Assembly (NCBI GenBank): GCA_944390735.1 | Contig: CALXRL010000031.1 | Coordinates: 8,955 to 72,954 of the forward strand | Origin: an uncultured Victivallales bacterium | GTDB taxonomy: Bacteria > Verrucomicrobiota > Lentisphaeria > Victivallales > UBA1829 | Reading direction: 5' to 3' | Length of the DNA: 64,000 nucleotides | Shown: piece by piece, positions 1 through 36,939 of the stretch | Numbering within the stretch: position 1 is the stretch's first letter | Layout of the letters: each line of letters opens with the position of its first letter | The notes under the pieces: generated by a model | What the model was told of the DNA's origin: nothing | What the model saw: only the letters and a program-made list of their open reading frames with translations | Database searches by the model: none | Translations under genes and position numbers: made by a program

Positions 1-419
1 TTGCCGCCGCGTTCGGACTCTCCGCCGCGGAAGCCAACCTCGCACTGAACAAGACGGTCTCCGCCAGCTCCAGTCAGGACAACAAGATGGTCGCGAAAAA
101 CGCCGTCGACGGCAAGAGCGGCACCCGCTGGTCCTCCCAGTTCAAGGATCCCCAGTGGATCATGGTGGATCTCGGTTCGAATCAGAAGGTCGGCAAAGTG
201 GTTCTCAGCTGGGAAGCCGCTGCCGGAAAGAACTTCAAAATTCAGGTCTCCAAAGATGGAAAAACCTGGAAGGATGTCGCTGTGAAGAAAGACGGCAAGG
301 GCGGAAAGGAAACGTTCTCGTTCAAGCAGGAAGAGGCCAGATATGTCCGCATGTTCGGCGAACAGCGGAAAACCAAGTTCGGCTACTCCCTCTGGGAATT
401 TGAAGTCTACGCGAAATAA
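1..419 (+). CDS. F5/8 type C (discoidin / CBM32-like) carbohydrate-binding domain protein, 5' end outside window
   Basis: The frame is open from nt 3 to TAA at 417-419. The translation AAAFGLSAAEANLALNKTVSASSSQ..AVDGKSGTRWSS..WIMVDLG..YVRMFG..SLWEFEVY has discoidin-domain hallmarks. The M at 87 in the ORF track is internal. Confidence 0.8.
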   Translation, partial: AAAFGLSAAEANLALNKTVSASSSQDNKMVAKNAVDGKSGTRWSSQFKDPQWIMVDLGSNQKVGKVVLSWEAAAGKNFKIQVSKDGKTWKDVAVKKDGKGGKETFSFKQEEARYVRMFGEQRKTKFGYSLWEFEVYAK

Positions 420-433
420 CAGCGCGCGGAACC

Positions 434-461
434 GGGGCGGAATTCTCCGCCCCCTTTTTTT
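434..461 (+). terminator. Rho-independent terminator after the discoidin-domain gene
   Basis: 8-bp GC stem ggggcgga/tccgcccc, loop attc, followed by a T7 run. Confidence 0.7.
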
Positions 462-594
462 GTGTGTGCGGAAATCGGACTCTGCGGGATCGCAAAATCC
501 ACATTTCCGGAAAAACGGAAGCGGATGGGCGCCCGCTGCATTTACCGCAGTGTGGATCGGGAGTGATTTCTTTTCATTACTTTCCATAAAAAAT

Positions 595-623
595 TTGAAT
601 GTTTGCTTTTCCGATAGTAAATT
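595..623 (+). promoter_or_regulatory. Putative sigma70-type promoter of metK
   Basis: TTGAAT, 17-nt spacer, TAAATT, about 50 nt upstream of the metK ATG. SD ggaagga lies before the start. Confidence 0.35.
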
Positions 624-675
624 ATAAGGATGGTGAAACATACAAACCTCTAATACGGAAGGAGTCTTTCCTAGA

Positions 676-1878
676 ATGAGCAAGATTCGCGCAGAACATA
701 TTTTTACTTCGGAGTCCGTTTCCGAAGGTCATCCCGACAAGGTGTCGGATCAGATTTCCGACGCCATTCTCGACGCCTGCCTGGCTCAGGATCCCGAGAG
801 CCGCGTCGCCTGCGAGACTCTCTGCACGACGGATCTGGTTGTCGTTTCCGGAGAAATCACGACGAAAGCTCAGGTGCATTGGGAAAAGATCGTGCGTGAT
901 GTGATTGCCGACATCGGCTATACCTCGCCGGATGTCGGATTTTCGGCTTCGGCCTGCAAAGTGTTTCTCTGCATTCACTCCCAGTCGCCGGACATCTCCC
1001 AGGGAGTCACGGAGGGGCAGGGGCTCTTCAAGGAGCAAGGCGCGGGCGATCAGGGCATGATGTTCGGATACGCCAGCAACGAGACCAGGGAACTGATGCC
1101 GGCCACCATTCTTTACGCGCACAAAATCGTGGAGGAGCTTGCGCGTCTCCGCAAGCAGGAGCCGGAAAAGTACAGCTATCTGCGGCCCGACTCCAAAAGC
1201 CAGGTTTCCATGAAGTACAAGGATGGCAAGCCGGTGGCGGTGACGACCATTGTCGTCTCCCATCAGCATGCGCCTGAAATGGATATCAAGGTCTTTGAAC
1301 AGGTCGTGAAGGATGTGGTGAAGAAGGTCATTCCCGCGGAGTTCCTGAATGACGACATCGAATATTTTGTCAATCCGACCGGACGCTTTGTCGTGGGCGG
1401 ACCGAACGGGGATACCGGACTGACCGGACGCAAAATCATCGTGGACACCTACGGCGGAGTCGGGTCTCACGGCGGCGGCGCGTTCTCCGGCAAGGATCCT
1501 TCGAAAGTGGACCGTTCCGCGGCTTACATGTGTCGTTACATCGCCAAGAACATCGTGGCTGCCGGACTTGCCGACAAGTGTGAAATCCAGGTCGCCTATG
1601 CCATCGGAGTGGCAAAACCGCTCTCCATCAATGTGGATACCTACGGAACCGGCCGAATCGCCAATGACGCCGATCTGGAGAAGGTGGTGGAAAAGGTTTT
1701 TGATCTGCGGCCGGCCGCGATTCTGGAAAAGCTGCAGCTGAAGCATCCGGCGGAAAACGGCTGGGCATACCGTCAGACCGCCTCGTACGGACACTTCGGC
1801 CGTTCCATCTTCCCGTGGGAAAAGACGGATATGACCGAAGCGCTGAAGGCGGCGGCAGCGGAATATCTTGCCCGATAA
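676..1878 (+). CDS. metK: S-adenosylmethionine synthetase
   Basis: 400 aa. N-terminus [37 protein letters not shown], and [25 protein letters not shown] are canonical MetK motifs. Confidence 0.98.
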
Positions 1879-1892
1879 CAGATTCTGCTTTT

Positions 1893-1925
1893 GCGGATGC
1901 CGCGGAACGGCATCCGCGTTTTTTT
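1893..1925 (+). terminator. Rho-independent terminator after metK
   Basis: 10-bp stem gcggatgccg/cggcatccgc, 5-nt loop, then a T-run. Confidence 0.7.
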
Positions 1926-1984
1926 CCGACGCCGCGGCTGCGGCGTCTCCCTCTCCAACCACGCAATAAGGAGACGATACCATA

Positions 1985-2989
1985 ATGGCATCCGGCAAAC
2001 TAAAAGTTCTGGCTCTCGGTTCCACGATTCTTGATATTCTGGCGAATGTGGAGGAGGAGTTTCTTTCGACCATCGACGGGGAAAAGGGCGGAATGGTGAT
2101 GATCGACGCGGAAACGTCCGACCGGCTTGTTGCGCGTCTGCTCTCCTGTCAGAAAATGCTTGGCGGTTCGGCGGCGAACACGCTGTTCGGACTTCAGAGA
2201 CTCGGCGTGCCGACCACCATGCTCGGCAAGGTCGGCACCGATGCCGAGGGGGATTTCTACCGGAGCGAATATGCGAGAATCGGAGGGGATGTCTCCCGGT
2301 TCAAAACGACCTCCGCATGCCGGACCGGTCGCTGCGTCAGCCTGATTACTCCGGATTCCGAGCGCACCATGCGGACCGATCTGGGGGCCGCCTCCACGTT
2401 CAAGGTCACGGAGATCACGGCGGCGGATTTCGAGGGCGTGACGCATGTTCATGTCGAAGGCTACATGATGTTCAATTTCGACGTGTTCCTGCATGTGCTG
2501 AAACTGGCGAAGGATGCCGGAGCGACCATCAGTCTTGATCTCGCCTCCTTTGAGGTAGTGAATCTTTTCCGCGACCGCCTGGACGACATTCTGAAACGCT
2601 ATGTGGACATCGTTTTCGCCAATGAGGACGAGGCCCGTGCCTTCCTCGGGGAGACCGGGGAGCTTTCCGCGAGTGCCGCAACCGCGAAACTCTGTGAATT
2701 CTGCCGGATCTCCGCCGTCAAACTCGGCCGAAAGGGCGCGTGCATCCGTTCCGGCGGCGAGGTGGTTTATCCGGGGGCGGAGCTGGTCACCGCGGTGGAT
2801 ACGACCGGGGCGGGGGATCTCTGGCAGGCGGGTTTCCTCTATGGATGGCTCAATGGATACTCGCTTGAAATCGCCGGAAAAATGGCGGCGATTCTGGGTG
2901 CGGAGGTTGTGCAGGTCATTGGGGCGACCATTCCGCCCTATCGCTGGGAGCCGATTAAAACACGATTTAAAAATCTGATCTTGAAATAA
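1985..2989 (+). CDS. PfkB-family carbohydrate/nucleoside kinase, probably adenosine kinase
   Basis: 334 aa. GGSAANT near the N-terminus and DTTGAGD near the C-terminus are PfkB signatures. The adenosine kinase call is inferred from its position between metK and ahcY. Confidence 0.8.
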   Translation: MASGKLKVLALGSTILDILANVEEEFLSTIDGEKGGMVMIDAETSDRLVARLLSCQKMLGGSAANTLFGLQRLGVPTTMLGKVGTDAEGDFYRSEYARIGGDVSRFKTTSACRTGRCVSLITPDSERTMRTDLGAASTFKVTEITAADFEGVTHVHVEGYMMFNFDVFLHVLKLAKDAGATISLDLASFEVVNLFRDRLDDILKRYVDIVFANEDEARAFLGETGELSASAATAKLCEFCRISAVKLGRKGACIRSGGEVVYPGAELVTAVDTTGAGDLWQAGFLYGWLNGYSLEIAGKMAAILGAEVVQVIGATIPPYRWEPIKTRFKNLILK

Positions 2990-3010
2990 CTTAACACAGG
3001 AAACGAAATC

Positions 3011-4495
3011 ATGCCAAGCAGAAAAACCGCGGCGAAAACCACCGCATCCGTGAAGAAAAAGGGAACCGCATCCAAAGCCGGAGCCGTATTCAGCGACTAC
3101 AAGATCCGCGACCTGGGCCTCGCAGAGGCCGGAAGAAAAGAACTCGACATCGCGGAAAAGGAGATGCCGGGGCTGATGGCCGTCCGGAAAAAATACGGGA
3201 AAAAGAAGCCGCTGAAGGGCGTCAAAATCATGGGAAGTCTCCACATGACCATTCAGACGGCGGTGCTGATCGAGACTCTGCGTGAACTCGGAGCGGACGT
3301 CCGCTGGTGTTCCTGCAACATCTTTTCGACGCAGGATCAGGCGGCCGCTGCCATTGTCAAAACCGGCGTTCCCGTGTTCGCATGGAAGGGCGAAACGCTG
3401 GAAGAGTACTGGGACTGCACCCTCAGGGCGATCACCTGGCCCGACGGATCCGGGCCCGATCAGATCGTCGATGACGGCGGAGACGCCACCCTTCTGATTC
3501 ACTGGGGCGTCAAGGCGGAAAAGGATCCCTCCTTCCTCAAACGCAAGCCCTCCAGCGAAGAGGAGCGCGTGATCCTGAATCTTCTGAAAAAGACGCTGAA
3601 AGAGGATCCGAAACGCTGGAGCAAAGTCGCGGCGCGCGTCAAAGGCGTTTCCGAGGAGACCACCACGGGGGTGCATCGTCTGATTCAGATGGCCGAGCGA
3701 GGCGAACTGCTCTTCCCTGCGATCAATGTCAACGATTCCGTCACCAAATCCAAATTCGACAACATCTACGGCTGCCGTCACTCCCTGACCGACGGAATCA
3801 AACGCGCTCTTGACGTGATGCTCTCCGGCAAGCAGGCGGTTGTCTGCGGCTACGGTGACGTCGGAAAAGGCTGTGCCGAGGCGCTCAAAAACGAGCGCGC
3901 CCGCGTGATCGTGACCGAAATCGACCCGATCTGCGCGCTTCAGGCGTGCATGGCCGGCTTTACCGTCGCCACGGTGGAAGACGCGCTTCCGACCGCCGAT
4001 CTCTATGTGACGACAACCGGCAACTGCCATATCATCACTGCGGAACACATGAAGAAGATGAAAGACCAGGCGATCGTCTGCAACATCGGTCATTTCGACA
4101 ATGAAATCGAGGTTGCCAGACTCAAGGCGATTCCCGGGATTCAGATTGTTGAAATCAAAGGGCACGAGTGTCCGGTGCACATGTACCGCTTCCCGGATGG
4201 TCACTGCATCTATCTTCTTGCGGAAGGCCGTCTTGTGAATCTCGGCTGTGCGACGGGCCATCCCAGCTTTGTCATGAGCTGTTCCTTTGCCAATCAGGTT
4301 CTTGCGCAGATTGCCATTGCGACCAGAAAGCACGAGGTCAAGGTCTATCGTCTTCCGAAGGAGCTCGACGAGGAAGTCGCCGCGCTGCATCTGGAAAAGC
4401 TCGGAGCCAAACTGACCCGTCTGACTCAGGAACAGGCCGATTACATCGGCGTCAAAATCGACGGGCCCTACAAGGCGGATTATTACAGATATTGA
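3011..4495 (+). CDS. ahcY: Adenosylhomocysteinase
   Basis: 494 aa. [54 protein letters not shown] (NAD site), and C-terminal YKADYYRY are typical AhcY motifs. Confidence 0.98.
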
Positions 4496-4524
4496 TCCGC
4501 ATATCCCATCGGATTCCTGTACAG

Positions 4525-4560
4525 GACAGGCGGCGCATGACGGGCCGCCTGTCTGATTTT
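4525..4560 (+). terminator. Probable terminator/attenuator after ahcY
   Basis: 10-bp stem gacaggcggc/gccgcctgtc with a 9-nt loop, followed by tgatttt. It lies only 17 nt before the next start, so it may be leaky. Confidence 0.4.
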
Positions 4561-4576
4561 CGGAGATTATAAATTC

Positions 4577-5332
4577 ATGGATTCTTTTCTGGACGGATTC
4601 ACGATCTGGAACACGGGAGCTCTGATCGCCTCCGCGCTCCTGATCGGACTCAATAAAACGGGCATTCCCGGAATCGGACTGCTTCCGGTTCTGCTTCTGA
4701 CCATGACCTTTCCGACCCGCCTTTCCACGGGACTTCAGCTCGGGATGCTCTGCATGGCGGATGTGATTGCGGTCATCTGGTACCGCCGCAGCGCAAACTG
4801 GCGCCTGATTCTGCGGATGATTCCGGCGGCAGCGGCGGGCCTTTTCGCCGGGACCCTTCTGGTCAATCAGCTGAACGACCGGACAATGGCGGTGACCATC
4901 GGAATCATTGTCCTTTTCCTCTGCGGCATCAGCATTGTCAAGGACTATGTTCTGAAGGATGCCAAACGGATTCCGACGCACTGGGCCTTTGGATCGGCCG
5001 CCGGATTCCTGGCCGGATTTACTACGCTGATCGCGAATGCGGCGGGCCCGGTCATGGCGCTCTATTTCCTGGCGCTGAAACTGGAGAAGAAGGAGTATGT
5101 GGGAACCGGAGCATGGTTCTTTCTGCTGATGAACTGGACGAAACTGCCGATTTTTGTCTGGCAGGAGCGCATTACGATGCAGTCGGCCATCGCGGATCTG
5201 GTCATGCTGCCGTTTATCATTGTCGGCGCAGTCATCGGGATTGTCATGCTGAAACACATCTCGCAGGAGTGGTTCAACAAGATTGTGGTGATTTTCTCGA
5301 TCATAGCCGCGCTGAAGCTGATTTTCTTCTGA
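4577..5332 (+). CDS. TauE/SafE (DUF81) family anion-exporter-like membrane protein
   Basis: 251 aa and strongly hydrophobic with about 7-8 predicted helices. Size and repeat-like halves are typical of the family. Confidence 0.75.
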   Translation: MDSFLDGFTIWNTGALIASALLIGLNKTGIPGIGLLPVLLLTMTFPTRLSTGLQLGMLCMADVIAVIWYRRSANWRLILRMIPAAAAGLFAGTLLVNQLNDRTMAVTIGIIVLFLCGISIVKDYVLKDAKRIPTHWAFGSAAGFLAGFTTLIANAAGPVMALYFLALKLEKKEYVGTGAWFFLLMNWTKLPIFVWQERITMQSAIADLVMLPFIIVGAVIGIVMLKHISQEWFNKIVVIFSIIAALKLIFF

Positions 5333-5369
5333 GTGCGGCGGGAGGAGGGGGAAAAGGGGGAGGCCTGCG

Positions 5370-5780
5370 TCAGAATTCGGCCTTCCCCTGAATATCGAAC
5401 TTGTAGGAGACGGAGAGAATTTTGACGCCCATTCCCATAAACTCCTTGCTGAACTTCAGACCGTTCAGGGTGTTGTCCCCCTGCAGGTTCAGATTCAACG
5501 TGAAGTGATCGGGATTGTTCAGGACGCTCCGGTGATTGCCGTCCCCGGTGTTTTCCGTATAGGTATAGGTGTTGACATGCTCCGTGTTCACCTTCTCCTC
5601 CTTGTTTGCGAGAAGGCCGGTTCCGGAGAACTTCACTTCGATGTCGGAAAGTTTGACTTTCAGATCCAGTTTCAGATCCTTGTGGTCCAGCTCTCCGGAG
5701 AGAACGGAAATATATTTTCTGACATTGTTGTCGATTTCTGATTTCAGAAACGTTTTGATAATGGATCCCAGCATAGACAT
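5370..5780 (-). CDS. Hypothetical small protein (orphan, beta-rich, no signal peptide)
   Basis: Start moved to the internal ATG (MSMLGSIIKTFLK...). The upstream part of the 175-aa ORF is Arg/Ser junk. AT-richer codon usage than neighbours. No recognisable family. Confidence 0.5.
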   Translation of the reverse strand: MSMLGSIIKTFLKSEIDNNVRKYISVLSGELDHKDLKLDLKVKLSDIEVKFSGTGLLANKEEKVNTEHVNTYTYTENTGDGNHRSVLNNPDHFTLNLNLQGDNTLNGLKFSKEFMGMGVKILSVSYKFDIQGKAEF

Positions 5781-6074
5781 GGCAACAGCTCCCGGTTCCG
5801 GTCCAGACAAGTTCCGCGCCGTTCCGGACGTGGCGGACCGCGGATCCACTGTCCGATCGCATTCCCGCTCCGATTCCTTCCGGAACATGCGGCGCATTTA
5901 CGTTCCGTCAATGTAGCCTGCTTCCTCGAAAAATCAAATCTCTCCAAGCGGATTTTTTTCATGCGGGAGTTCTTTTTCTCCGGGAAGAGAGGTGTTCCCG
6001 GAAAATGTTTTTGCCGGATGGAACAATAAAATCCCTCTTTCCCGCGTTTTATGCGCAAAACGGGAGAGCAAAAG

Positions 6075-6683
6075 ATGAAATTTCTTCAGAAAAGACAAAA
6101 CTTTACATTGATGGAACTTCTTATCGTTGTTTCTGTCATTTCCATTCTGGCAGGACTTCTTCTTTCCGCGCTGAATTCGGCGCGGGCGAAGGCGCAGAGC
6201 GTCAGCTGCAGGAGCAATCTCCGGCAGCTGGGAATCGCCTTCAAGACATACAGCGGCGATTACAGGCGGATTCCGACGGTCTGTGTGATGCCCTCCAAAC
6301 GGAGCGAGGCGGAAAAAACCTTCGGGAATCCCTCTTATCTCCCGAGCATCCGGGAACTGCTGGAAAACGAGATTGCCGGCGGCGGGAATGTGTTCCGCTG
6401 CCCGTCCGACCGCGGCGCGGCGGAAGATCCGATCGGTCTCTACACCGATGAGGAGGATGACGACTCCGTGAAAAACACCGGAGCCGATTACTCCGTCAGC
6501 GATGGCGCCAGCGATTTCGAACGCGAGGGTTCCAGCTATGAATTCAACGGTTTTATGCTCCGGGTGAACGACCGGAGCCGCGCAATGCTGATGCACGATT
6601 ACCGTCCTTATCACGGAACGGCGGGAACGCCGGGGGCGGCAAACTATCTTTTCGCCGACGGTCATGTCGGGGATCTTCAATAA
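6075..6683 (+). CDS. Pseudopilin-like protein with prepilin-type N-terminal methylation domain (DUF1559 / H-X9-DG type)
   Basis: MKFLQKRQN|FTLMELLIVVSVISILAGLLLSALNSARAKAQ..C..NLRQLG, and a C-terminal YLFADGHV motif. SD gggagag lies 6 nt before ATG 6075. Confidence 0.85.
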   Translation: MKFLQKRQNFTLMELLIVVSVISILAGLLLSALNSARAKAQSVSCRSNLRQLGIAFKTYSGDYRRIPTVCVMPSKRSEAEKTFGNPSYLPSIRELLENEIAGGGNVFRCPSDRGAAEDPIGLYTDEEDDDSVKNTGADYSVSDGASDFEREGSSYEFNGFMLRVNDRSRAMLMHDYRPYHGTAGTPGAANYLFADGHVGDLQ

Positions 6684-6696
6684 GGATTGTAAAAAA

Positions 6697-7329
6697 ATGG
6701 TCAATTTTCCCGGGAATCATTTGAAATTTCCGCGAATTGCGGTTATTCTGTTGACAGTCATCGGAATGGCAGCCGTTTCCCTTGTGCTCCTTTCGACGCC
6801 TGAGCCGAAGTCGGACAAGCTGGAGGATCTGGCCGCGTTTCTCGCATCGCCGTCGTTCCGGAAACTGCCGGAGGCGAAACAGGAGGAGTATCTCAAGCGG
6901 ATGCGTCCGTCGCGGGAAAACCGCGGAGAGTTCCGCCGGGTCGCCGCGGCCATGACCGACGAACAGCGCAGGGCGATGTTTGAAAACATGCGTATTCTTC
7001 ACGAGAAGAGAAGAGTGGAGGAGCTCCGGGCATATTTCAAACTGTCGAAAGCGGAAAAACAGGAGTTTCTGGACCGGAAGATCGCCGAACAGGACCGCAG
7101 AATGGCCGAGTTCGCCAGACGGCGCGCGGAACGGGAAAACGATGGAAGCCGGGACGGGGCGGCGCGGGAACGCCGTCCCTCCGGAGAACAGAGAGCGGCG
7201 ATGCGGAAGACCCGGCTGGAAACGACTCCTCCGGAAGTCCGGGACGCCAGACAGAGGTTCTTTCAGGACATGTGGAAGCGCCGCGCGGAAACCGGCAGAA
7301 TGCCGGCTCGCGGAGGTCCGCCGCTCTGA
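6697..7329 (+). CDS. Hypothetical membrane-anchored protein with Arg/Glu-rich helical region
   Basis: MVNFPG..IAVILLTVIGMAAVSLVLL is a single TM segment, followed by charged helical repeats (EQRRAMFENMRILHEKRRVEELRAYF..). Follows the pseudopilin-like gene directly. Confidence 0.6.
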   Translation: MVNFPGNHLKFPRIAVILLTVIGMAAVSLVLLSTPEPKSDKLEDLAAFLASPSFRKLPEAKQEEYLKRMRPSRENRGEFRRVAAAMTDEQRRAMFENMRILHEKRRVEELRAYFKLSKAEKQEFLDRKIAEQDRRMAEFARRRAERENDGSRDGAARERRPSGEQRAAMRKTRLETTPPEVRDARQRFFQDMWKRRAETGRMPARGGPPL

Positions 7330-7464: not shown

Positions 7465-7664
7465 GTAATCAAGAAAACAGTTTTCTGTCTTTCGGGAAGC
7501 CTGGAAGATCCGGGCATTTTTCATGGGGGGATCCGCCGCTGTGAGGGGAGGAGGAATTTGAATGTCCGGTCGGATCAGAAGGGGCCGACGGGGATGGTGT
7601 CAGAAGAAAAGGTGGAGTTGTACGGATGGGGAAGGAGAAAAACGGTCCGCGGGGAGTAAAGTTC

Positions 7665-8717
7665 ATGACGGAGGATCTGGCCAGCCGGATTCTCTCGGGA
7701 GAACTTCCGGTTCGGAGGCAGCTGCCGACGACGCGGGCGCTTGCCAAACTCTATCAGGTTTCGACGGTGACTGCAAGCCGGAGCATCGGCGAACTCAAGC
7801 GACGGGGACTGGTTGAGGCATATCCCGGAATCGGACTCTTTGTTTCGTCTCCCGGGGAGGAGGAGAAACGGGCCTTCCGGAATGCTCACTGCAGCTTTCA
7901 TGTGGGGCTGATTCATCAGAACAAAGCCGGTTTTCATGTGACGGGGGACATTCATTCGGCCTGGTATATCGATCATCTGATGGATGAGTGGATTCAAGGA
8001 GCGGTGCAGCGCTGCGAGGAGTTCGGGTTCCGGTACACGCTGTTCGATCATTTTCCGGAGAGGGGGGATCCCTGTGACGCCTATCTCTGTTCGACCACGG
8101 TTGTGCGCTGGGAGCTTATTTCGGAAATGACCCGGAAACCGGTTCTGTTTCTGTCCTCTCGTCCGCCGGAGGATTTTTCCATTCGGGAGAGCTGGATCTC
8201 GGCGGATCTTTATGCGATGTCGCGGACCGTTGTCTCCCGGCTGATTGAGCGTGGTTACCGGCGGATCGCCTGCTTGTGCGGGATTGACCTCCCGGCGTAT
8301 CACTCCCGGGTGAAGGCGTACCGGGATGTGCTGGAGGCGGCCGGTCTTCCCTTCCATGAGGAACTGGTCTTCCGTTCGGACAGCAGTGAATGGGAGATCC
8401 GCAAGCAGATCGACAAACTGCTTGCGCTTCCGGAAGAGATCCGGCCCGATGCGGTCTACTGTATCAGCGACCGGCGCGCGATTCTTCTTCAGGAGCGTCT
8501 GAGGGAGTTGAAAATCCGAGTGCCGGAGGAGATGGCTATCATGGGGTTCGACGGCTGTGAAGAGGCGCGGCGACGGGGCATCAGCACCATTACCATTCCT
8601 GTCCGGGATATCGGATCCTGGGGTATTTATTTTCTGAACGGGTGGAAGACGGGAATTCTGCATCCTCCGTTTCACTTTCTGTTCTGTGGAGAGATGTATC
8701 CGGGTGAGACTTGTTAA
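7665..8717 (+). CDS. AraR-type chimeric regulator (GntR winged-HTH + LacI/PBP1-type sugar-binding domain)
   Basis: N-terminus [41 protein letters not shown] (GntR HTH). C-terminal pattern [50 protein letters not shown] (LacI-family effector domain). Confidence 0.8.
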
Positions 8718-8862: not shown

Positions 8863-9591
8863 ATGAAACGGTGCAGAAAAAAATTTACATTAATAGAACT
8901 TCTGGTTGTGATTGCTGTGATAGCGATTCTTGTTTCACTTCTGCTTCCCGCATTGAGCAAGGCGCGGGAATCCGGAAGAAACATCTCCTGTGTCAGCAAT
9001 CTGAAACAGATCGGAACGGGCCTTGCCATGTACGCAAACGACTACGACTTCTATCCGGCGGCATGTCCGGAAACCGGGGAAACGTATACGCAGAACTACT
9101 GGCATTTCAAGGTGAGGCCCTATCTGGGATATCAGCGGGTTCCGAAAAACTGGACAGAAGCGTCGTTGTTCCGGCGGGAAGGAGTTTTTTTCTGTCCGTC
9201 CACGGACATTCTGTACAATGACAGCGGGTTTTCAGACACGCTCTCCTACTCCATGAATTCCTTCGGTTATCTGGTTTCCTACAAAGCATTTACGCCTGCA
9301 AGTGCTCTGGACGCACCGGCCACTCTTTATACGCCGTATTATACAAAATCCTCCAGCAGAAGCAAGGAATATTCGCCGGGGAAAGTCATTTTTGTCAGTG
9401 AACTGGGACGGAACGTCAGCGACGAAAAGGGGTATACGCATCCGGCCATCCGGAATTATGATTTCTACATCGGAGGCGGCGAAAATTTACCCTCATTCCG
9501 GCATCTGGGGGCAAAAAATTCCCTTCAGTTCGATTTGCATGTGGAACGGGTGATTCTGCCGAGAATCGAATGGTATCTGACACTGAAATAA
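8863..9591 (+). CDS. Pseudopilin-like protein with prepilin-type N-terminal methylation domain (DUF1559 type)
   Basis: MKRCRKK|[44 protein letters not shown]. The C-terminal motif is degenerate (FDLHV). The 59-aa N-terminal extension in the ORF track is non-coding and contains the promoter. Confidence 0.85.
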
Positions 9592-9609: not shown

Positions 9610-12543
9610 ATGAATTTCCGCATTCTTTCCGCCGTCTTCTGCAGTCTTCTAATTTCCGGAACACTTTTCGCCGCCGTCGCTGTGGATTTCTCAAAAGATT
9701 CGCTGATCCATTATCCGCTTCCGAATCATCCGGAGGATCGGATTCGGATCGGAAAATCGGAAATTCCGGGAAAAGGAAAAACGGGAGTCTCCCTTTCCTG
9801 GGAGACGGAACATTATCATTACACGCAGACTGGAATTCTCAGGAACCCGCTTCCGGAGTTTCAGAAATTCCGGAAAATGGAACTGATGTTGAATGTGTTT
9901 GTGGAACCGGGAAGCAGGGTTTCCCAGTTCGGACTGCGTTTCCGGGATGCGGAAGGGGAAATCTTTCAGATCTCCTCGGAACGACTGACGTCGGGAAGCA
10001 ATGGAAATCAAAGAATCGCGCTGCTTTTTGATGCGGAAAAACTTCCTCCGTCCTGGGGAACGAAACAGAACCGGAAAATCGACTGGCCGCTGCGATTGTT
10101 CGGCATGACGGTTTCCTTTCCTCCCCAGAGCGGCCGGGGAAGGGTCGTTTTCGAATCCATCGAAACTCTGAATCCGGATCGTCTTCTGGATTCCGTGGAG
10201 GTCAGGACGGATACGGGGCATCCGCTTCATCTGCTGCTTTCCGAACATGGGAATCCGCGTCTTTCCTTCCGGAACACGCTGAATCGGCCGGTCTCTTTTC
10301 TGGCGGAATGGAAGCTTTCCGATTTCCGGGGCAAAACGCTGGCGGCCTCCCGGAAACGGATGAATCTGCCGCCGGAAAATACGATCGCCGTTCCCATTCC
10401 GGGGAAATTTCCACTGGGAATCTTTTATGTCGATTACAGACTGAAGATGACGGACGGTTCCGGAGAAACGTCCGGCAGACGCTCGTTTGCCTTCCTTCTT
10501 TCTTCCGGAGAAAAAAAGGCTCGGCAGGGAGAATTTCTGTTCGGCGTCTGTTCCCATCCGGGACGAATTCCGCCGGAAGAACAGGAGCTGGAGGCTCTTG
10601 CGGCTTCTCTCTGCGGAGCACGGTATCTGCGCACGGGAATCTCCTGGGAAAGTCTCGAACGGCAAAAAGGAAAGCGCGATTATTCCCGTTTCGACCGCGT
10701 TGTCGATACGTTCCTGAAATATGGCATTGAAACGCAGGTCCTTCTTGCATTCACCCCCCGCTGGGCCGTTTCCGGAGAAGGAAGTCCCGTTTATCCCAAG
10801 GACCGCAGGCTCATGTTCCGACTCCCCGATTACGATGCCTATGCCTCTTTCGCAGAGGAAACGGCTCGACGCTACAAAGGAAAGCTGCGCTTTTTTGAGA
10901 TCTGGAACGAACCGGATATCTCATTCGGAAATTTTACAACGGAGCAGTACCTCAAACTTCTCCGTGCCGGATATGAAGGTGTCAAACGGGGGAATCCGGA
11001 AGCCGTCGTCATGACCGGCGGTTTCACCTATATGCCGCTGAGCGATGTGCCTCCGAAACCAGGAATGATGCGCCGGACACTCATCGAAGGAAAAGGCTTC
11101 TATGACATCCATGCGTTTCACGGCCATGGTCCCTTCGAACATTACCGGCCGCAGATTCCCGCCATGCTCGAAATGCGGAGGAACGGCAGGATCTCGGCGC
11201 CATGGTATGCCAATGAGACCGCCGACCATTCGATTCGCGGAGAGGTCCATCAGGCTGTCACGCTGTTTCAGAAACTGATTTTCAGCTGGGCAAACGGAGC
11301 CATGGGCTACAACTGGTACGATCTGCGGAACGATGGATATGATCGTTATGAGAAAGAACATAATTTCGGGATGCTGACACGCGATTTCCAGCCGAAAGCG
11401 GTCTATCCGGTTTACGGGATGCTGACACGATTGTTCGCTCCGGCCTCTTTTCGGAAAACGAGGAATCCCGGCGGAGGAATCTATCTGTATGAGTTCGAGA
11501 CGCCCGGGGCAGTTCTTCTCCCGATGTGGCGCGACGAGGGATCATTGCCCTCCGTCCTGGCATGGAAGACGGATGCCCGGAAAGCGGAGGCGGTGGACCT
11601 GATGGGCAACAGAACCGCGCTTGCCATGGAGGCCGGATTCGTGCTGGCGACTCCGGAACAGATTCCCTGTACGCTGATTCTCCATGGAGCGAAAAAAGTG
11701 GAGTTTGCCGGATTCGCGGTTCAATTCACTCAGCCGGGACTTCAAATTCCGGGGACTCCGGCCTATCTGCCCTTTGTTCTTCAGAATCCGTTCCCGCAAG
11801 AGCGTTCCTTCCGGATCGGAAGCGGATCACATTCCGCCGTGTATCCGCTGAAAGGCGGGGCGGAACAGCGGATTCGTATTCAGACCGATTCTCCGGAGTT
11901 CTGCTGGCAGCTGGGCGACTCCTTCCGGGGAACGCTTCCGGTTTCGTTTCTCCGGGCCCGTGTGATTTCAGCGGAAGCGCACCGGAAACCGGACTTTGTG
12001 CTGAACCGGGATGAGAACCGGGTGGAGCTCTTTCCCAACAATCCCCTGATGCGGCACATGACCTGGAAAGGGCCGGAGGATCTTTCCGCGGAAATCCGGC
12101 TCAGTCTCCGGAAGGATTCCCTGATCCTCGAGGCGGAAGTGGTGGATGACCGGCATGTTCAGCCCTATGCCCGGTCCATGGTCTGGCAGGGGGACAACAT
12201 TCAGGCGGCGTTCCGGTTTCCGAATCAGACCGGGAACTGGGAGATCGGTCTGAGCCGCCTTGATTCCGGGAAGGCGGAAGTCTTTTTCTGGGACGCTCCC
12301 CGGAAGGCGGATCCATCCGCCGTTCGACTCTCGACGGATCGGAAGGGCAACCGGACATGTTACCATGCGGAGATTCCCTTTTCCCTGTTCGGAATCAGAC
12401 GCGGGGATCTCGCCTGCGGATTCCGCTTCAATCTGCTGGTCAACGACAATGACGGCGATGGACGGAAAGGATGGCTGCAGATCGCTCCCGGTCTTGGAAA
12501 AGACAAGTCTCCCGTTCATTACCCCGTTTTGATTTTCCCCTGA
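9610..12543 (+). CDS. Secreted clan GH-A (GH5/GH39-like) glycoside hydrolase with C-terminal CBM9-like domain
   Basis: 977 aa. Signal peptide MNFRILSAVFCSLLISGTLFAA. Acid/base motif FFEIWNEPD, later ANETA. C-terminal NLLVNDNDGDGRKGW is CBM9/DOMON-like. Confidence 0.7.
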   Translation: MNFRILSAVFCSLLISGTLFAAVAVDFSKDSLIHYPLPNHPEDRIRIGKSEIPGKGKTGVSLSWETEHYHYTQTGILRNPLPEFQKFRKMELMLNVFVEPGSRVSQFGLRFRDAEGEIFQISSERLTSGSNGNQRIALLFDAEKLPPSWGTKQNRKIDWPLRLFGMTVSFPPQSGRGRVVFESIETLNPDRLLDSVEVRTDTGHPLHLLLSEHGNPRLSFRNTLNRPVSFLAEWKLSDFRGKTLAASRKRMNLPPENTIAVPIPGKFPLGIFYVDYRLKMTDGSGETSGRRSFAFLLSSGEKKARQGEFLFGVCSHPGRIPPEEQELEALAASLCGARYLRTGISWESLERQKGKRDYSRFDRVVDTFLKYGIETQVLLAFTPRWAVSGEGSPVYPKDRRLMFRLPDYDAYASFAEETARRYKGKLRFFEIWNEPDISFGNFTTEQYLKLLRAGYEGVKRGNPEAVVMTGGFTYMPLSDVPPKPGMMRRTLIEGKGFYDIHAFHGHGPFEHYRPQIPAMLEMRRNGRISAPWYANETADHSIRGEVHQAVTLFQKLIFSWANGAMGYNWYDLRNDGYDRYEKEHNFGMLTRDFQPKAVYPVYGMLTRLFAPASFRKTRNPGGGIYLYEFETPGAVLLPMWRDEGSLPSVLAWKTDARKAEAVDLMGNRTALAMEAGFVLATPEQIPCTLILHGAKKVEFAGFAVQFTQPGLQIPGTPAYLPFVLQNPFPQERSFRIGSGSHSAVYPLKGGAEQRIRIQTDSPEFCWQLGDSFRGTLPVSFLRARVISAEAHRKPDFVLNRDENRVELFPNNPLMRHMTWKGPEDLSAEIRLSLRKDSLILEAEVVDDRHVQPYARSMVWQGDNIQAAFRFPNQTGNWEIGLSRLDSGKAEVFFWDAPRKADPSAVRLSTDRKGNRTCYHAEIPFSLFGIRRGDLACGFRFNLLVNDNDGDGRKGWLQIAPGLGKDKSPVHYPVLIFP

Positions 12544-12586
12544 AATGAAAAGGAACCCAGATGCCGAAAACAGAGAGGTCATCCCG

Positions 12587-14371
12587 ATGAATTCGATCCG
12601 GATCGCTTTCCGCGACTTTCTGCGCCCCGATACCAAAGAGGACGCTTCCGCCGCCTTCCGAGCCCTTTCGGAACAGCTTGCCGGGCTTCCCGGCGACTCT
12701 CCCGTCTCCGTTCACTTCGAGCCCGGAAGGTATGATTTTTATGAAGAAGGCGCCTTCGAACGCGTCTGCTACATTTCCAATCATACGCAAACCCGTCGGA
12801 AAAAGATCGCTCTGCTGATCGAAAACCGCAGAAATGTCATCCTGAACGGCAACGGCGCCCGGTTCCTGTTTCATGGAACGCTCATTCCGGTCGCTTTTCT
12901 CCGGACCGAAAACTGCGTGCTGAAAAATCTCTCCATCGACTATGAGTTTCCGCAGCTTCATCAGCTTGTCATCCGGGAGGTCGATGAGCTCCATGACGAG
13001 CTTGTCTGTGAACTCCTGCCCCGGGAGGAGTTCCGCATCAAGGACGGCTGCCGCCTCCGCTTTCTTCACGAACACAATCCGGAGTATTCCCTTCAGTCAA
13101 TCATGCCTTTTGAGGAAAACGGAAGACTCTGCTGGAACAAGGCGGATCTCTCATTTCAGCCGGAACGGATTGTCGATCTCGGCAGCGGCAGACTCCGGCT
13201 CCTCTCCTGCGGTCTCTCCGGACTCCGGCCCGGCTGCCGACTGGTCCTGCGTCCGGCGCTGCGCCCGACTCCCGGAATTTTTCTTCATCACGCCGACCGC
13301 ACAGAAATCGAACAGGTCACCGTGCACTATGCGTTCGGCATGGGACTTCTCGCCCAGATGACCGAAGACATTACTCTCCGTTCCTTCTCCGTCCGGCGCA
13401 GGAGTCCGGATGATCCCCGCTTCTTCACCACTCAGGCGGACGCCACCCATTTCTCCGGATGCAAAGGCCGGATCCTTTCCGAAAACGGTCTCTACGAGGG
13501 CATGGCCGATGACGCCATCAATGTGCACGGAATCTATCTGCGCATTCTGGAACAACGGGACCGCCGGACTATCCGCGCCTCCTATATGCACCGCGAAACC
13601 TGGGGATTCGACTGGGGGGAAAAGGGGAATGTCGTCTGCTTCCTCCGCTCGCGCACCATGGAATATGAACCGGAGAAACGCCGCATCGCCTCCATCCGGC
13701 CCGTGGATTCCGATACCGAATCGGGGGCGAAGGTGTTTGAAATCGTCTTCGAGCAGGATCTTCCCCCGTTTGCTCCCGGGGAACCGTACGGAATCGAAAA
13801 CCTCACCTGGACTCCGGAAGTCCTGTTCCGCAACAACATCATCCGGAACAACCGTGCTCGCGGGGCTCTGTTCAGCACTCCGAAACGGGTGGTCTGCGAG
13901 AACAACTTCTTCGATCATACCCACGGATCCGCCATTCTGCTCTGCGGGGACTGCAACGGCTGGTTCGAAACCGGAGCCTGTCATGAGGTCTTCATCCGGA
14001 ACAACCGCTTCCGGAACGCGCTCACCGCCATGTATCAGTTTACGGAGGCCGTGATCTCCATCTATCCGGAAATTCCGGACCTGAGTGCGCAGAAACAGTT
14101 CTTCCATTCGAACATCACCATTACGGGAAATACCTTTGAGATCTTTGATGCGCAGGTCCTTTACGCGAAATCAACGGAACACCTTATTTTCTCGGACAAT
14201 ACCATCCTTCACAATCACGATTTTCCGCCATTTCATCGGAACCGGTTTCTGTTCCTGCTGGAAAAAACCGCGGATGTCCGCATCGTGAACAATCATTTCG
14301 ATGTTCCGTTTGTTCCGGAAAAAGACATCTGCATCCGGAACGGCAACCCCGGTGCTGTCACTGTAAGCTGA
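12587..14371 (+). CDS. Right-handed beta-helix glycosidase, GH110 (alpha-1,3-galactosidase)-like
   Basis: GRYDFYEEGAFERVCYISNH...NGNGARFLFHGTLIPVAF..LKNLSIDYEFP, and later NNRARGALFSTP. I recall this pattern from GH110 beta-helix enzymes. An alternative start at ATG 12545 exists; 12587 has the better SD (agagagg). Confidence 0.6.
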   Translation: MNSIRIAFRDFLRPDTKEDASAAFRALSEQLAGLPGDSPVSVHFEPGRYDFYEEGAFERVCYISNHTQTRRKKIALLIENRRNVILNGNGARFLFHGTLIPVAFLRTENCVLKNLSIDYEFPQLHQLVIREVDELHDELVCELLPREEFRIKDGCRLRFLHEHNPEYSLQSIMPFEENGRLCWNKADLSFQPERIVDLGSGRLRLLSCGLSGLRPGCRLVLRPALRPTPGIFLHHADRTEIEQVTVHYAFGMGLLAQMTEDITLRSFSVRRRSPDDPRFFTTQADATHFSGCKGRILSENGLYEGMADDAINVHGIYLRILEQRDRRTIRASYMHRETWGFDWGEKGNVVCFLRSRTMEYEPEKRRIASIRPVDSDTESGAKVFEIVFEQDLPPFAPGEPYGIENLTWTPEVLFRNNIIRNNRARGALFSTPKRVVCENNFFDHTHGSAILLCGDCNGWFETGACHEVFIRNNRFRNALTAMYQFTEAVISIYPEIPDLSAQKQFFHSNITITGNTFEIFDAQVLYAKSTEHLIFSDNTILHNHDFPPFHRNRFLFLLEKTADVRIVNNHFDVPFVPEKDICIRNGNPGAVTVS

Positions 14372-14428
14372 AGCCTTCCATCCGGATGCGGTCACGGAAG
14401 TGTCACATCCGGAAAGTTCCATTCCCTG

Positions 14429-14812
14429 TTACACCGGGGTGTCCGTCTGTCGGTCAAACACCTCCTTGGCGAGAAAGACCGCATTGACCGCGGCGGGAAA
14501 TCCCGCATATACCGCAAGCTGAATAAACACCTCCAGAATCTCTTCCTTCGAGATGCCGACATTCAGCGCCATATTGATATGCGATTTCAGCTCCTCCTTC
14601 GCATACCCCAGGGAAGCAAGAGAAGAGAGAATCACCAGTTCCCGCTCCCGCTTGCCGAGTCCCGGACGGGAATGCACATCCCCGAACGCAAACTCCTTGA
14701 TGTAGGTGTTCAGATCGGGCGCGATCTCACACAGTTTCGCTCCGATGGGGCTGTTGTTGTTCATCTCCCTGAGCCGGTTCCATCCTTTTCGATAGCGTTC
14801 GGATTCTTCCAT
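14429..14812 (-). CDS. Carboxymuconolactone decarboxylase (CMD/AhpD-like) family protein
   Basis: 127 aa. [80 protein letters not shown] is the typical CMD-family core. Confidence 0.85.
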
Positions 14813-15747
14813 TTTTCCTTTTTTCCGTTCTGTTCTGTTTTTGCTGTGTTGATTATGTTCAGACCGAATCCGGAGAGAATCCGTTCGGCGTGTTCCATGT
14901 CCTGCGCGGAGGGCGCGGGGACGGACGGCATGGTGTCCGCATGTCCCACCGTCTCATATTTGGAACGGGCCAGGGAGTGATAGGCCAGCAGCCGGACCGC
15001 AGTGATGTTTTTCCGTCGGGAAAGGAACGTTCCGGCCCCGATGAGATCCGGATCCGACAGATTGTATTCCGGAATCAGCGGCATCCGGATTTCAATCGGC
15101 ACTCCGCATTCGGAAAGGCGGGTCAGGTTTTCCAGAATCCGCTCGTTGGGCGCCCCGGTGAACTCCCTGTGTTTCCGGGAATCAATCTCCTTGAAATCGT
15201 AGAGGAAGAGATCCGTCAGCGGCAGCACGCGCTCGAAGGCCTCCCACGGCACATTGCCGCAGGTATCGACGGCGCAGGAGATGCCTTCCTTCTTCAGAAT
15301 CCGGAACAGTTCCGCGCAGAATTCCGCCTGAAGCAGCGGTTCGCCGCCGGAAACGGTGGCTCCTCCGTTGGAATATTCATAAAAAATGCGATCCTCCAGA
15401 ATCCGGTTCGCGGCCTCTTCCGCGGAGATCGGCTGTCCGTACAGAACCAGAGCGTCGTACAGACAGGCGGAGACGCATTTTCCGCAGGCGATGCATTCGG
15501 AGCGGTCGATCCGGTGTTCGTTCCCGGCAAACGAATGGCAGTGGCGCGGACAGACTCCCGCACACGCTCCGCAGAGCACGCATTTGTTTTTCCGGAAGCC
15601 GAGTTCCGGCTCGCGGCGGACACTCTCCGGATTGTGACACCAGACGCATGCCAGAGGACACCCTTTCAGAAAGAGAGTCGTCCGGATTCCCGGTCCGTCA
15701 TGCACGGCGAAGCGTTTCCATTCGACCATGAATCCTTCGGTTTTCAT
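14761..15747 (-). CDS. Glycyl-radical enzyme activating enzyme (radical SAM)
   Basis: 328 aa. [25 protein letters not shown] (CX3CX2C) plus two ferredoxin-type clusters [12 protein letters not shown] and [15 protein letters not shown] overlap with the upstream GRE gene. Confidence 0.93.
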
Positions 15748-17852
15748 GCGATGTTCTCCGCCTGTGCAATGAAGGTGTTCTGCTCCTCGGGACGCAGGTC
15801 GGTGAACCGCACGTTCCAGCCGCAGACGCGCACCTGAAGATTGGTATACTTTTCCGGATGCCGTTGTGCATCCCGGAGCGTTTCGGCATCGAAGATATTG
15901 AACTGAAGTCCGCTTCCGCCCGCGGCGATGAAGGCCCGGATGATCGCGGTCAGGACCTCGATTCCCTCCTCTCCGCGGACTGCGCTCGGATGAAGCATCA
16001 GATCCAGGCAGGTTCCGCAGGGAAAGGCGGAAAAATCAAGTTTCAGCACGGAATTCATCAGGGAGGTGATTCCGTTTTTATCCATCGGAATGCAGGCGTC
16101 CATGTTTTTGGAAACGGGAGTTCCGGCTTTTCGGCCGTCGGGAAGGGCGCCGATCTGTTTGCCGCGCTCCACGACGGACTGTCCGTAAAGAGAGGCAAAG
16201 AAATGTCCGCCGCGCGCGTTCTCCTGACGGTTGACCAGCGGGGAGACAAATTCGGCGATTTCGCGCCCGATCCGATCCGCCCTTTCATCGTTGTTGCCCC
16301 ATTTCGGCGCACGGTTCCGGGCGATCATCCGGAGCTTTTCCCAGCCGTTCCAGTCGGCGGCAAGCGCTTTGCGCAGTTCCGGAAGCGTGCAGAGCTTCTC
16401 CTGATACACCAGAAATTCCACGGCCGCCAGCGAATCCACCGCCTCGGCGAAGAAGCTGATGACGCATCCGGTGCTGTTGTATTCCACGCCGCCCTGCGAG
16501 ATATCCCGTCCGGTCTCCATGCAGTGGGCGAAGGAGCCGGCGAGAAACGGCGAGGGATTCACTTCGCTCCAGAGTTTCTCGCAGCGGCACTGCTGCTTCC
16601 GCAGAAGAAGAACATCCTCCTCCATCATCTCGAAATACGCATGTTTGAACGCTTCAAACGTGGGATACTCCTTTCCGTTTCGCAGCTCCTGAAGGAGGAT
16701 CGCGGGCAGGTAGAGATGGGTCGCTCCGGAGGTGGAAATCTCCTTGCCGAGCACGGCGGGTTCGTAACAGCCGATGGGAATGAAATTTTCCGCATCCTCG
16801 CGGGTCCGTCCATGCCGGACAAGTCCCTGAATCACGACGTCATTGTTCAGAAAGACGATTCCGTTGCGGCCGTCGCGAATGTTTTTTGCGGCAAGCTCCA
16901 GAAAATCCTGCGGCGTGTCCGGCGTGACCCGGACGGAGAGTTTCGGATCAACCGTGTTCATCTTGTGATACACCTCCATCCCGAGATACGACAGTTCGTT
17001 GATTTCCGGTCCGAAACAGAAATTCTTCCCGAAGCGTGTCCCCTGCCATTTCGCATAGAAGGCGATCCAGAAATATTGAATCAGTTCTTCCGCCGACTCC
17101 CTGGTGAGGCGTCCGGCCTTGAGATCGCGGCGGTAGAAGTCGATGTACAGGCGGTCGAACCAGCCCATGGTGCGGACCTCCTCTCCCTCGATTTCCTGAA
17201 GATCATGAAACAGATACGCCAGCTGAAACGCCTCCCGGAGCGTCTGCGGCGGCCGTTCCGCAAGAGCCAGAAGTGCCTCGTTTCCGGAGGCTTTCCCCAG
17301 ACGGCGGCAGAGTTCAATGGCTCCGTCATACACCATCACCGCGGCACGGTGCAGAGCGGTGGACCCTTTCGCTGCCCGGTCGCGCAGACCGGGAAATCCG
17401 AGTTTCAGAATCGCCATCCAGTCGGGGGAGGTGTGGCTGGTGTCGATCATATAGCCGATGGAATGCTCCATGTCGATTACGAACATCTTCTGATCTCCCG
17501 GCACGGAATGATCGGAAAACTCCTTCGGCCAGAGTTCATCGACCCATTTCCAGCGAAGTTTCTGAAACAGAGATGCGCAGGGATCCACTTTTCCTGCGAA
17601 ATAATTGTCGGGCTCCGGAGCAATCCGCGCTTTTGTGCAGACCAGATGAAGCAGAAAGGCTTTGGTCAGGACATGCTCCTCTCCGGGATTCTCCCGGCAA
17701 TGCGCTTCAAAAAGCGTCTGGATTCCCTGCTCATCCAGGCCGCTTTCCGGATCGTAGACAACATGTTCATACTGTTTTTCCAGACGTTTTCTGGCTGAAT
17801 CAAACAATTCCATAATGGCACTCCTTTCGGGAAAAGGAAATCCCGTTTTCAT
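15744..17852 (-). CDS. Glycyl radical enzyme, PFL2/dehydratase-lyase class, substrate unknown
   Basis: 702 aa. Glycyl-radical motif [12 protein letters not shown] at the C-terminus. Thiyl loop IPIGCYEP (Cys-x-Glu). GGVEYN and ALPDGRKAG are conserved GRE blocks. Confidence 0.93.
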
Positions 17853-28430: not shown

Positions 28431-29117
28431 TTATCGGTATTGCACAACTGGGGGTATTTTTGAAGATGGAGAAAAAGACCCCGGATCGTAAATACTTGTT
28501 CCATTGAATCGCAAGGTTCGCGCATGTCCATCCACATAGCTTATGTTGAAAAACATATTGTTGTTATGACGCCGCATGAGTTTATCATTATTCAATCCTT
28601 CTTCGACATCTCCAACATACCATTTTGCATACATCCCAATAATTCCGTTTTTGGCTGTTACATCACCGATGAGTACTTTCTGACTGGGAAGGACAAAGTC
28701 TTTTAGAGCTGTATACTCAAGTTCCACATGCCCAAGTTTTCCTGCTTGATTGTAGCCATAAGTACCAATGGTTCCGGCTGGACATTTTGCCACTCCATAT
28801 GGCGTCCAAGTCCCTGTTTGTGAATCCGGTTGCGAAATATATTTATATTCTGCTAGTTGCCTCCACCAGGACTTCTGAGTTCCGGATGTGATATTTCGGA
28901 CAGCACTTCCGGTTTCACTATCATAAAGGATAAAAGCTGTTGTCAATTGTTTGATGTTTCCTACACAACTTATCGTTCGAGCCTTGTCTCTGGCGCTGTG
29001 CAGAGCAGGAAGAAGAAGTCCTGCAAGAATTGCTATAATAGTAATTACAACAAGAAGCTCAATCAATGTAAAAAATTTCTTTGTCTGCTGAGAAGCATAT
29101 CCGTTGTTCATCATCAT
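28431..29117 (-). CDS. Pseudopilin-like protein with prepilin-type N-terminal methylation domain (DUF1559 type)
   Basis: ..QQTKKF|[44 protein letters not shown]-terminal ISYVDGHA motif. Visibly AT-richer than flanking genes. Confidence 0.85.
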
Positions 29118-36808: not shown

Positions 36809-36939
36809 AACCACCACCAGTCGATATTCTGCTCTTGTCAATCGAAGAAATATTACATCAGAATTTGTTTTTTTCGAGCGTTTTTGCAAAAAAAGATGTT
36901 TTTTTTCATTCGGAGAAGGGAAAAGCTCCGTTTCCCCCA

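Follow-up and report, generated by a model that had tools for sequence, protein, structure and literature searches.

All four pilin-like genes in the stretch of DNA studied here lack the small residue that normally precedes the cleavage site of prepilins. The stretch comprises 64,000 nucleotides from an uncultured Victivallales bacterium (contig CALXRL010000031.1, positions 8,955 to 72,954 of the forward strand; hereafter the window). Gly or Ala at this position, −1, is the textbook determinant of cleavage by prepilin peptidases and is built into pilin predictors (PROSITE, PilFind, TIGR02532). The first-pass annotation of the window had described the missing glycine as a feature of these four genes; the feature is real there but is not peculiar to them, and the sequences compared below indicate that it is a phylum-wide trait of the Lentisphaerota. 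By the same comparisons the four genes are, for Lentisphaerota, ordinary members of a very large family of the Planctomycetes–Verrucomicrobia–Chlamydiae (PVC) superphylum. The predicted architecture of this family joins a type IV pilin or pseudopilin N-terminus to a globular domain of the DUF1559/SBP_bac_10 type and, at the C-terminus, an H-X9-DG hairpin.

A six-frame motif scan of the whole window returned exactly four pilin-type N-termini. Pilin-like gene 1 (6075–6683, plus strand) encodes 202 amino acids from the ATG at 6075 and begins MKFLQKRQN/FTLMELL, where the slash marks the canonical cut site; the −1 residue is Asn (AAC, 6099–6101) and FTLME occupies 6102–6116. Gene 2 (8863–9591, plus strand, 242 amino acids) begins MKRCRKK/FTLIELL, with Lys at −1 (AAA, 8881–8883) and FTLIE at 8884–8898. 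Gene 3 (28431–29117, minus strand, 228 amino acids) is preceded by a strong AAGGAGG Shine-Dalgarno motif and has a 15-residue leader ending QQTKKF/FTLIELL, with Phe at −1 (TTT, 29073–29075) and FTLIE at 29058–29072. Gene 4 (45930–46742, minus strand, 270 amino acids) has a 20-residue leader ending RNALKS/FTLIELL, with Ser at −1 (AGT, 46683–46685) and FTLIE at 46668–46682. Codon reading together with the scan therefore upheld the annotation on the absence of Gly from all four proteins and on the residues found in its place, and settled on Phe for gene 3, where it had given Phe or Lys. A short basic leader, Phe+1, Glu+5 and about 20 uncharged residues thereafter are present in all four, in agreement with its statement that Glu+5 and the hydrophobic helix are conserved; Gly/Ala at −1 is the one element of a class III signal peptide that all four lack. 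The annotation also had the C-terminal DGH motif intact in three proteins and degenerate in the fourth, as we found: gene 1 carries H-X14-DGH (6612–6665), genes 3 and 4 carry H-X11-DGH (28524–28568 and 46020–46064), and gene 2 carries a 13-residue H-X9-DLH (9502–9540) in which the canonical H-X9 spacing is kept and the sole change is Gly to Leu.

The ATGs at 6075, 8863, 29117 and 46742 each have a Shine-Dalgarno-like motif ahead of them. Other start candidates exist for gene 1 (an in-frame ATG at 6051), gene 2 (8803) and gene 4 (an ATG at 46757). The possibility that a true start elsewhere would place a Gly before the motif, which the annotation had named as its own refutation, was checked; the alternative starts are all upstream and leave position −1 unchanged, and no in-frame start of the four genes gives Gly or Ala there. 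Identical leaders were found in independent metagenome assemblies (L001 and L083–L085) and are therefore not a sequencing or gene-calling artefact.

The annotation had proposed comparing position −1 between this lineage and Planctomycetota, and the comparison gave a clear lineage split. Using a GTDB species genome scan, we assembled 80 taxon-named loci, among which those from Lentisphaerota were labelled Victivallales, Lentisphaerales or Oligosphaeraceae, and scanned every pilin-type N-terminus in them. Gly or Ala stood at −1 in 41 of 43 N-termini from Verrucomicrobiota and in 17 of 17 from Planctomycetota, as against 4 of 34 from Lentisphaerota (58/60 vs 4/34 in these taxon-named genomes; Fisher's exact p=6e-18). 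Armatimonadota and other labelled phyla also had Gly/Ala, and both verrucomicrobial exceptions lay in one metagenome-assembled genome together with Lentisphaerota-like sequences. At the frequency of the sister phyla the chance of four misses in four genes is about 1e-6; at the Lentisphaerota frequency (about 12% Gly/Ala) it is the expected outcome. The annotation had applied a rule of Gly only. A small residue at −1 is indeed canonical, but Ala is accepted too and is the commoner of the two in the sister phyla (34 Ala vs 24 Gly; loci L003–L081). Because Ala outnumbers Gly there, the family outside Lentisphaerota is already at the permissive end of the Gly/Ala rule for the prepilin peptidase PilD.

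Information content shows how sharply the constraint is lost. The sister phyla have 2.9 bits at position −1 and Lentisphaerota 0.14 bit, while positions +1 to +24 carry about 3.5–4 bits in both, so that in Lentisphaerota conservation steps from about 0.1 to about 3.9 bits precisely where the canonical cut would fall. On the mature side, F1-T2-L3-I4-E5 plus some 24 hydrophobic residues, conservation is as strong as in the phyla with Gly/Ala. Among the 118 best homologues of gene 4, in which Glu+5 was fixed by the motif used for locating the site, Phe+1 was invariant and the −1 residue was Arg (15), Lys (13), Gly (13), Ser (12), Asn (11), Ala (9), Leu (8) or another; the most distant of these homologues return to Gly/Ala. 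The result was replicated in a pooled, non-redundant set of 158 Lentisphaerota-type sequences, where 19 residue types occurred at −1 (Gly and Ala together 12.7%, Lys and Arg 31%) and Phe+1 and Glu+5 were each present in 158 of 158. In a separate set of 123 Lentisphaerota-type representatives (50% identity), Gly and Ala made up 5.7%. The Victivallales members of the gene 1 orthologue group have Asn, Lys, Ile, Ser, Phe, Asp or Arg at −1, and the members that are probably of other phyla, two of them labelled Bacillota and Omnitrophica, have Gly/Ala. Leaders are also shorter in Lentisphaerota (median 6–7 residues vs 9–15 in the sister phyla), down to a minimum of three. The residue before the canonical cut site in Lentisphaerota is thus free of any constraint and has been absorbed into a short basic leader, typically MKKx.

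Position −1 also varies within the species, which we found again in metagenome assemblies of the European Nucleotide Archive. The sample names of these assemblies suggest to us a human-gut origin; an explicit human-gut label is attached to L144 alone, which is a different contig. Independent assemblies of the same species (L083, L084 and L085) showed 3–7 nucleotide differences per gene. In gene 1 the −1 codon changes from Asn to Lys, the sole amino-acid change relative to L085, and in gene 2 it changes from Lys to Asn in three other assemblies.

Profile searches placed the four proteins in the pilin-like family. All four passed the cut-off of TIGR02532 (IV_pilin_GFxxxE, the prepilin N-terminal domain; scores 17.6, 19.5, 20.6 and 22.0, cut-off 16.3), with alignments that in every case begin at profile position 4, the Phe, and leave the Gly column unmatched. 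The PF07963 (N_methyl) threshold of 21.2 was exceeded by genes 1 and 4 only (22.7 and 29.0), with genes 2 and 3 below it. PF07596 (DUF1559, SBP_bac_10) was matched by gene 1 (35.9), gene 2 (40.9) and gene 4 (33.2) above its gathering threshold of 23.3. Gene 3 had no PF07596 match at E<=0.01, yet has the helix in common with the others, as well as Cys+36 and the DGH motif. TIGR04294 (H-X9-DG) reported gene 1 alone, at 17.9 bits, slightly below its cut-off of 19; in a 72-sequence alignment H227, D239, G240 and H241 were invariant or almost so. Models of GspG, ComGC and PilA matched the N-terminal helix only and scored far under their cut-offs; the GspG equivalog model TIGR01710, for example, scored 29–38 against 88.85 and aligned only over profile positions 2–62 of 134. 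Through the helix, a profile of the 72 homologues matched type IV pilins and GspG of known structure (Thermus PilA, 6xxd, 1e-16; GspG, 5wda), as well as geopilin and M. xanthus PilA.

The AlphaFold2 model of gene 4 (predicted local distance difference test score, pLDDT, 91) has a disordered leader, a single 51-residue helix at 23–73 and then a beta-sheet domain, where the motif's DG falls between the final two strands. A Foldseek comparison with the PDB returned weak pilin matches only (E>=0.56) and no strong solved relative of the globular part. Where homologues are named, the names are Victivallales, Victivallis or Lentisphaeria. Among cluster representatives at 50% identity, the family profile had 31,449 matches with E<=1e-30 and 238,766 with E<=1e-10; a tblastn search of the family against PLSDB plasmids gave no match. 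We considered and rejected a lipoprotein lipobox at the conserved Cys+36: this residue is situated in the predicted helix, 12 residues past the hydrophobic segment, and a second invariant Cys is its partner. In L051 (2575 and 2761) and L079 (2580 and 2433, minus strand), decayed copies of the N-terminal FTLIELLV module were seen about 50–60 codons 5' of intact ones, which points to duplication or recombination involving the strongly conserved 5' end of the gene.

The annotation had left two options side by side, an altered peptidase and an uncleaved anchor. Both are still live, but the evidence is not neutral between them, and we lean towards continued cleavage at the canonical site by a peptidase with no requirement for the residue at −1 (P1). 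The proteins would be inserted with the N-terminus in the cytoplasm and cut on the cytoplasmic face by a prepilin-type (A24) peptidase, or a replacement for it, that ignores P1 and recognises the invariant prime side FTLIELL. We favour this because the conserved block begins exactly at the canonical scissile bond, because Phe+1 and Glu+5 are invariant across paralogues less than 40% identical elsewhere, and because the mature N-terminus equals that of the phyla with Gly/Ala. In the P. aeruginosa PilA/PilD system Phe+1 and Glu+5 matter after cleavage, for N-methylation and filament assembly, and Glu5 contacts the neighbouring N-terminus during pilin assembly; it is hard to see what a buried Glu+5 would do in a plain anchor. 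More speculatively, the processed proteins may function as pseudopilin-like modules that stay in the membrane or are incorporated into a pseudopilus. Each module might be co-expressed with one exported carbohydrate-active enzyme (CAZyme) under a local sugar-sensing regulator, and might serve in glycan capture or in enzyme docking and secretion.

Some precedent exists for such relaxed specificity. PilD cleaves at Gly or Ala (PMC3244431) and the archaeal FlaK needs Gly at −1, but PibD of Sulfolobus tolerates substitutions around the cut site, cuts leaders of 3–4 residues and processes the sugar-binding proteins of the bindosome (PMC4187195). Several points weigh against continued cleavage. The drift at −1 is exactly what would equally be expected had cleavage been abandoned. 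Bacterial prepilin peptidases are not known to accept Arg, Lys, Asp, Pro, Ile or Trp as the P1 residue. The window and about 0.5 Mb of Lentisphaerota loci yielded no A24 peptidase, no GspE and no GspF, although this is a sample too small to argue absence. The CAZyme-linked role (glycan capture, enzyme docking or a secretion adaptor), for its part, is speculative and is drawn from gene order.

The main competitor holds that the family in Lentisphaerota consists of uncleaved, bitopic inner-membrane proteins with a cytoplasmic N-terminus, a periplasmic globular domain and the old pilin helix as anchor, and that −1 drifted once processing ended. We regard it as possible but clearly less probable than continued cleavage. 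It accounts well for a position that carries almost no information, resembles −2 and −3 in composition (including its share of Lys and Arg) and is polymorphic within the species, and for leaders that shrink to three residues, the minimum for a positive-inside anchor. The lack of a type II secretion system (T2SS) or type IV pilus (T4P) ATPase, platform protein or peptidase near these genes agrees with it as well, as does the occurrence of Pro, Asp and Trp at P1, which is without precedent for PilD. A plain anchor, however, gives no reason for Phe+1, Thr+2, Leu+3 and the buried Glu+5 to be invariant across hundreds of such divergent paralogues, nor for the onset of the conserved block to coincide with the canonical cut site, and the match of the first 24 mature residues to those of the Gly/Ala phyla suggests the same downstream handling.

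It is very improbable that the helix instead serves as an extended Sec signal peptide from which signal peptidase I, cutting after Pro-Ala-Leu-x-x-Ala (for example LLPALSSA/REK), frees a soluble periplasmic protein for which −1 would be irrelevant. The basic n-region, the hydrophobic core, the Pro at about −6 and the small residues at −1 and −3 of some members (SSA, SKA) resemble such a site, but the hydrophobic stretch of 21–24 residues has the length of a signal anchor, position −3 of the putative site is often Asn or Gln (NQA, NKA), and P22 and the A-x-x-A pattern occur in genuine pilins too. The helix of the AlphaFold2 model also runs unbroken through the putative site, and this explanation leaves the invariant Glu+5 and Phe+1 unaccounted for. 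An artefact, in which wrong starts, sequencing errors or pseudogenes hide a true Gly, is hardly credible unless one systematic assembly error affects all the independent data sets. The disagreement of gene callers over the starts of genes 1, 2 and 4 (6051/6075, 8803/8863 and 46757/46742) is all that speaks for it, and none of these choices touches the −1 codons; the same or equally non-Gly residues recur in independent assemblies and in hundreds of homologues, and the open reading frames (ORFs) are intact, with Pfam and NCBIfam matches that extend through the C-terminal motif.

A more ambitious form of continued cleavage would have one P1-blind prepilin-type peptidase, or a replacement not homologous to it, read FTLIELL only and process hundreds of pilin-like proteins per genome. 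These proteins, each paired with a sugar-sensing regulator and an exported glycoside hydrolase or lyase, would then form a bacterial counterpart of the bindosome, in which a pseudopilus-based system captures glycans or displays enzymes and takes the place of SusC/D-type systems in Lentisphaerota. We consider this rather unlikely.

The search for a peptidase and secretion machinery used phmmer with E. coli Gsp proteins and later with the full-length PilD from locus L166, together with a GxGD[x]K regular expression. The E. coli GspO query was weak, scoring a bona fide PilD at just E=0.01. The sole peptidase in the window and 1.95 Mb of fetched loci was the L166 enzyme, which belongs to an unrelated low-GC organism whose pilins all have Gly at −1. 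A secretin beside a pilin-like gene in L144 was followed as a route to a T2SS and rejected, as such a secretin always belonged to a cassette with a YknX-like adaptor, an ATP-binding cassette (ABC) protein and MacB. This conserved Lentisphaerota cassette comprises a short secretin (450–530 amino acids), a periplasmic adaptor of YknX/HlyD type, an ABC ATPase and a permease of MacB/FtsX type, and lacks GspE and GspF (L169 and L170, each 10001–15190; L172, 10001–15040; L173, 10001–14937; L144, 1–1368). In L169, L170 and L144 a family 2 glycosyltransferase (GT2) gene and a 223-amino-acid pilin-like gene lie divergently upstream of it. To our knowledge the coupling of a secretin to a MacB-type pump is unusual. 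T2SS-like operons were seen in a Verrucomicrobia locus (L045, 10862–15172, minus strand) and a metagenome contig (L111, 14243–18621, minus strand). Both have the order GspF, GspH-like gene, I, J, K, with no recognisable GspG and with H-X9-DG genes alongside, and the H-X9-DG family might supply the role of major pseudopilin there.

The proteins of the window are alike in most respects to the DUF1559/H-X9-DG proteins of Planctomycetota and Verrucomicrobiota. Both sets belong to the same family (PF07596, TIGR04294, TIGR02532), agree in their first 24 mature residues and in a Cys at mature position 36, carry the globular domain and, at the C-terminus, the H..DGH hairpin, and are massively paralogous. 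The differences are at −1, where the sister phyla have Gly/Ala in nearly all cases and Lentisphaerota any residue, and in the longer leaders of the sister phyla. Many PVC genomes have no larger paralogous family than this one, to which no function has been assigned. In Planctopirus limnophila it has 68 paralogues, likewise of unknown function (PMC10632474). Canonical class III signal peptides, those of T4P pilins and of GspG–K processed by PilD/GspO, have the same short basic leader, Phe+1, Glu+5, hydrophobic N-terminal helix with Pro22 and long helix, and differ in their defining Gly/Ala at −1. The genes here also lie outside T2SS/T4P operons, beside regulators and CAZymes. If cleavage continues as we favour, a working parallel would be PibD and the bindosome of Sulfolobus solfataricus (GlcS/AraS), where one relaxed prepilin-type peptidase acts on many non-pilus substrates for sugar use that carry 3–4-residue leaders. 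That system is archaeal and its substrates are binding proteins of ABC transporters unrelated to DUF1559; the likeness is functional and we claim no homology. The flexibility of PibD was, moreover, shown by mutagenesis of one substrate and not as a natural, phylum-wide loss at −1 (PMC4187195).

The family and its motifs are already catalogued (PF07596, TIGR04294 and TIGR02532) and its paralogy in Planctomycetes has been noted; what appears to be new is a robust, phylum-wide departure from the textbook rule at −1. In the open-access papers covered by our literature search, with most subscription journals outside its scope, we found neither a remark on position −1 of these proteins nor an account of an unusual Lentisphaerota prepilin peptidase. 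A whole phylum that drops the −1 residue yet keeps the other features of pilins invariant is a natural experiment on how A24 aspartyl peptidases choose their cut site. In gut and environmental Victivallales, predictors based on the motif will detect too few of these proteins. Knowing if members are processed like pilins would be the first step to a role for them beside polysaccharide-degrading enzymes.

Genes 2, 3 and 4 share one cassette order, namely a GntR-type regulator, the pilin-like gene and a large, putatively exported CAZyme, with gaps of 3–18 bp before the enzyme. The regulator directly upstream of gene 2 (7626–8717, plus strand) combines a GntR helix-turn-helix with Peripla_BP_3, a LacI-like sugar sensor, and two genes follow (9610–14371, plus strand), the first of which starts 18 bp downstream. 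Its product of 977 amino acids starts with what reads as a Sec signal peptide and weakly matches glycoside hydrolase (GH) family 39; the second encodes a 608-amino-acid right-handed beta-helix protein. Gene 3 lies directly downstream of a regulator with a GntR/MarR-type winged helix-turn-helix (29133–30113, minus strand) and is followed after 9 bp by an enzyme of 1118 amino acids with a Sec-like N-terminus and a GH2 domain match (25065–28421, minus strand). Directly upstream of gene 4 is a regulator with GntR and Peripla_BP_3 domains (46792–48069, minus strand), and 3 bp downstream is a 780-amino-acid heparinase II/III-like polysaccharide lyase (DUF4962 and Hepar_II_III_C; 43584–45926, minus strand) with a Sec-like N-terminus. 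The LacI-like sugar-binding domain is thus present in two of the three cassette regulators. A GGGtGRT-family protein (PF14057) adjoins the gene 4 regulator (48138–48845, plus strand; 223–1227 in L001).

Gene 1 sits amid housekeeping genes and has no link to CAZymes or regulators. It is a member of a short orthologue group whose proteins stop at the H..DGH motif, and is followed by an ORF of about 210 amino acids (6697–7329, plus strand) with one transmembrane segment, a highly charged region and no Pfam match. This partner shares 33% identity with the ORF downstream of the gene 1 orthologue in another Victivallales genus (L174), and the pair is kept across Victivallales genera (6075–7329 in the window; L174, 10001–11237; L083, 11713–12991).

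No T2SS or T4P ATPase, platform protein, secretin, peptidase or gsp gene was found near the four genes, and extending the window by 10 kb on either side revealed no pilus machinery. The extension did contain further pairs of a CAZyme and a pilin-like gene. A pilin-like gene stands right before a large glycoside hydrolase just past the 3' end of the window and in another Lentisphaerota genome. The order of pilin-like gene then glycoside hydrolase was also seen in L086 and L172, where the upstream neighbours are a GHL6 protein and AraC/FAD-oxidoreductase genes.

Three further observations concern the window itself. Long shadow ORFs overlie real plus-strand genes (metK, a PfkB kinase and ahcY) in positions 1–5900 and in many other stretches; one of them, at 2000–5257 on the minus strand, spans 1085 amino acids, and naive longest-ORF calls mislead in this window. 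A glycyl-radical enzyme of 702 amino acids (pyruvate formate-lyase-like, with Gly_radical) and its radical S-adenosylmethionine activase are encoded between two CAZyme clusters (14761–17852, minus strand). At 34344–36940 on the minus strand, an FtsA-like gene (465 amino acids) is followed by a gene of the FtsZ/tubulin family (400 amino acids); their Pfam matches are modest (72 and 53 bits) and these homologues are divergent.

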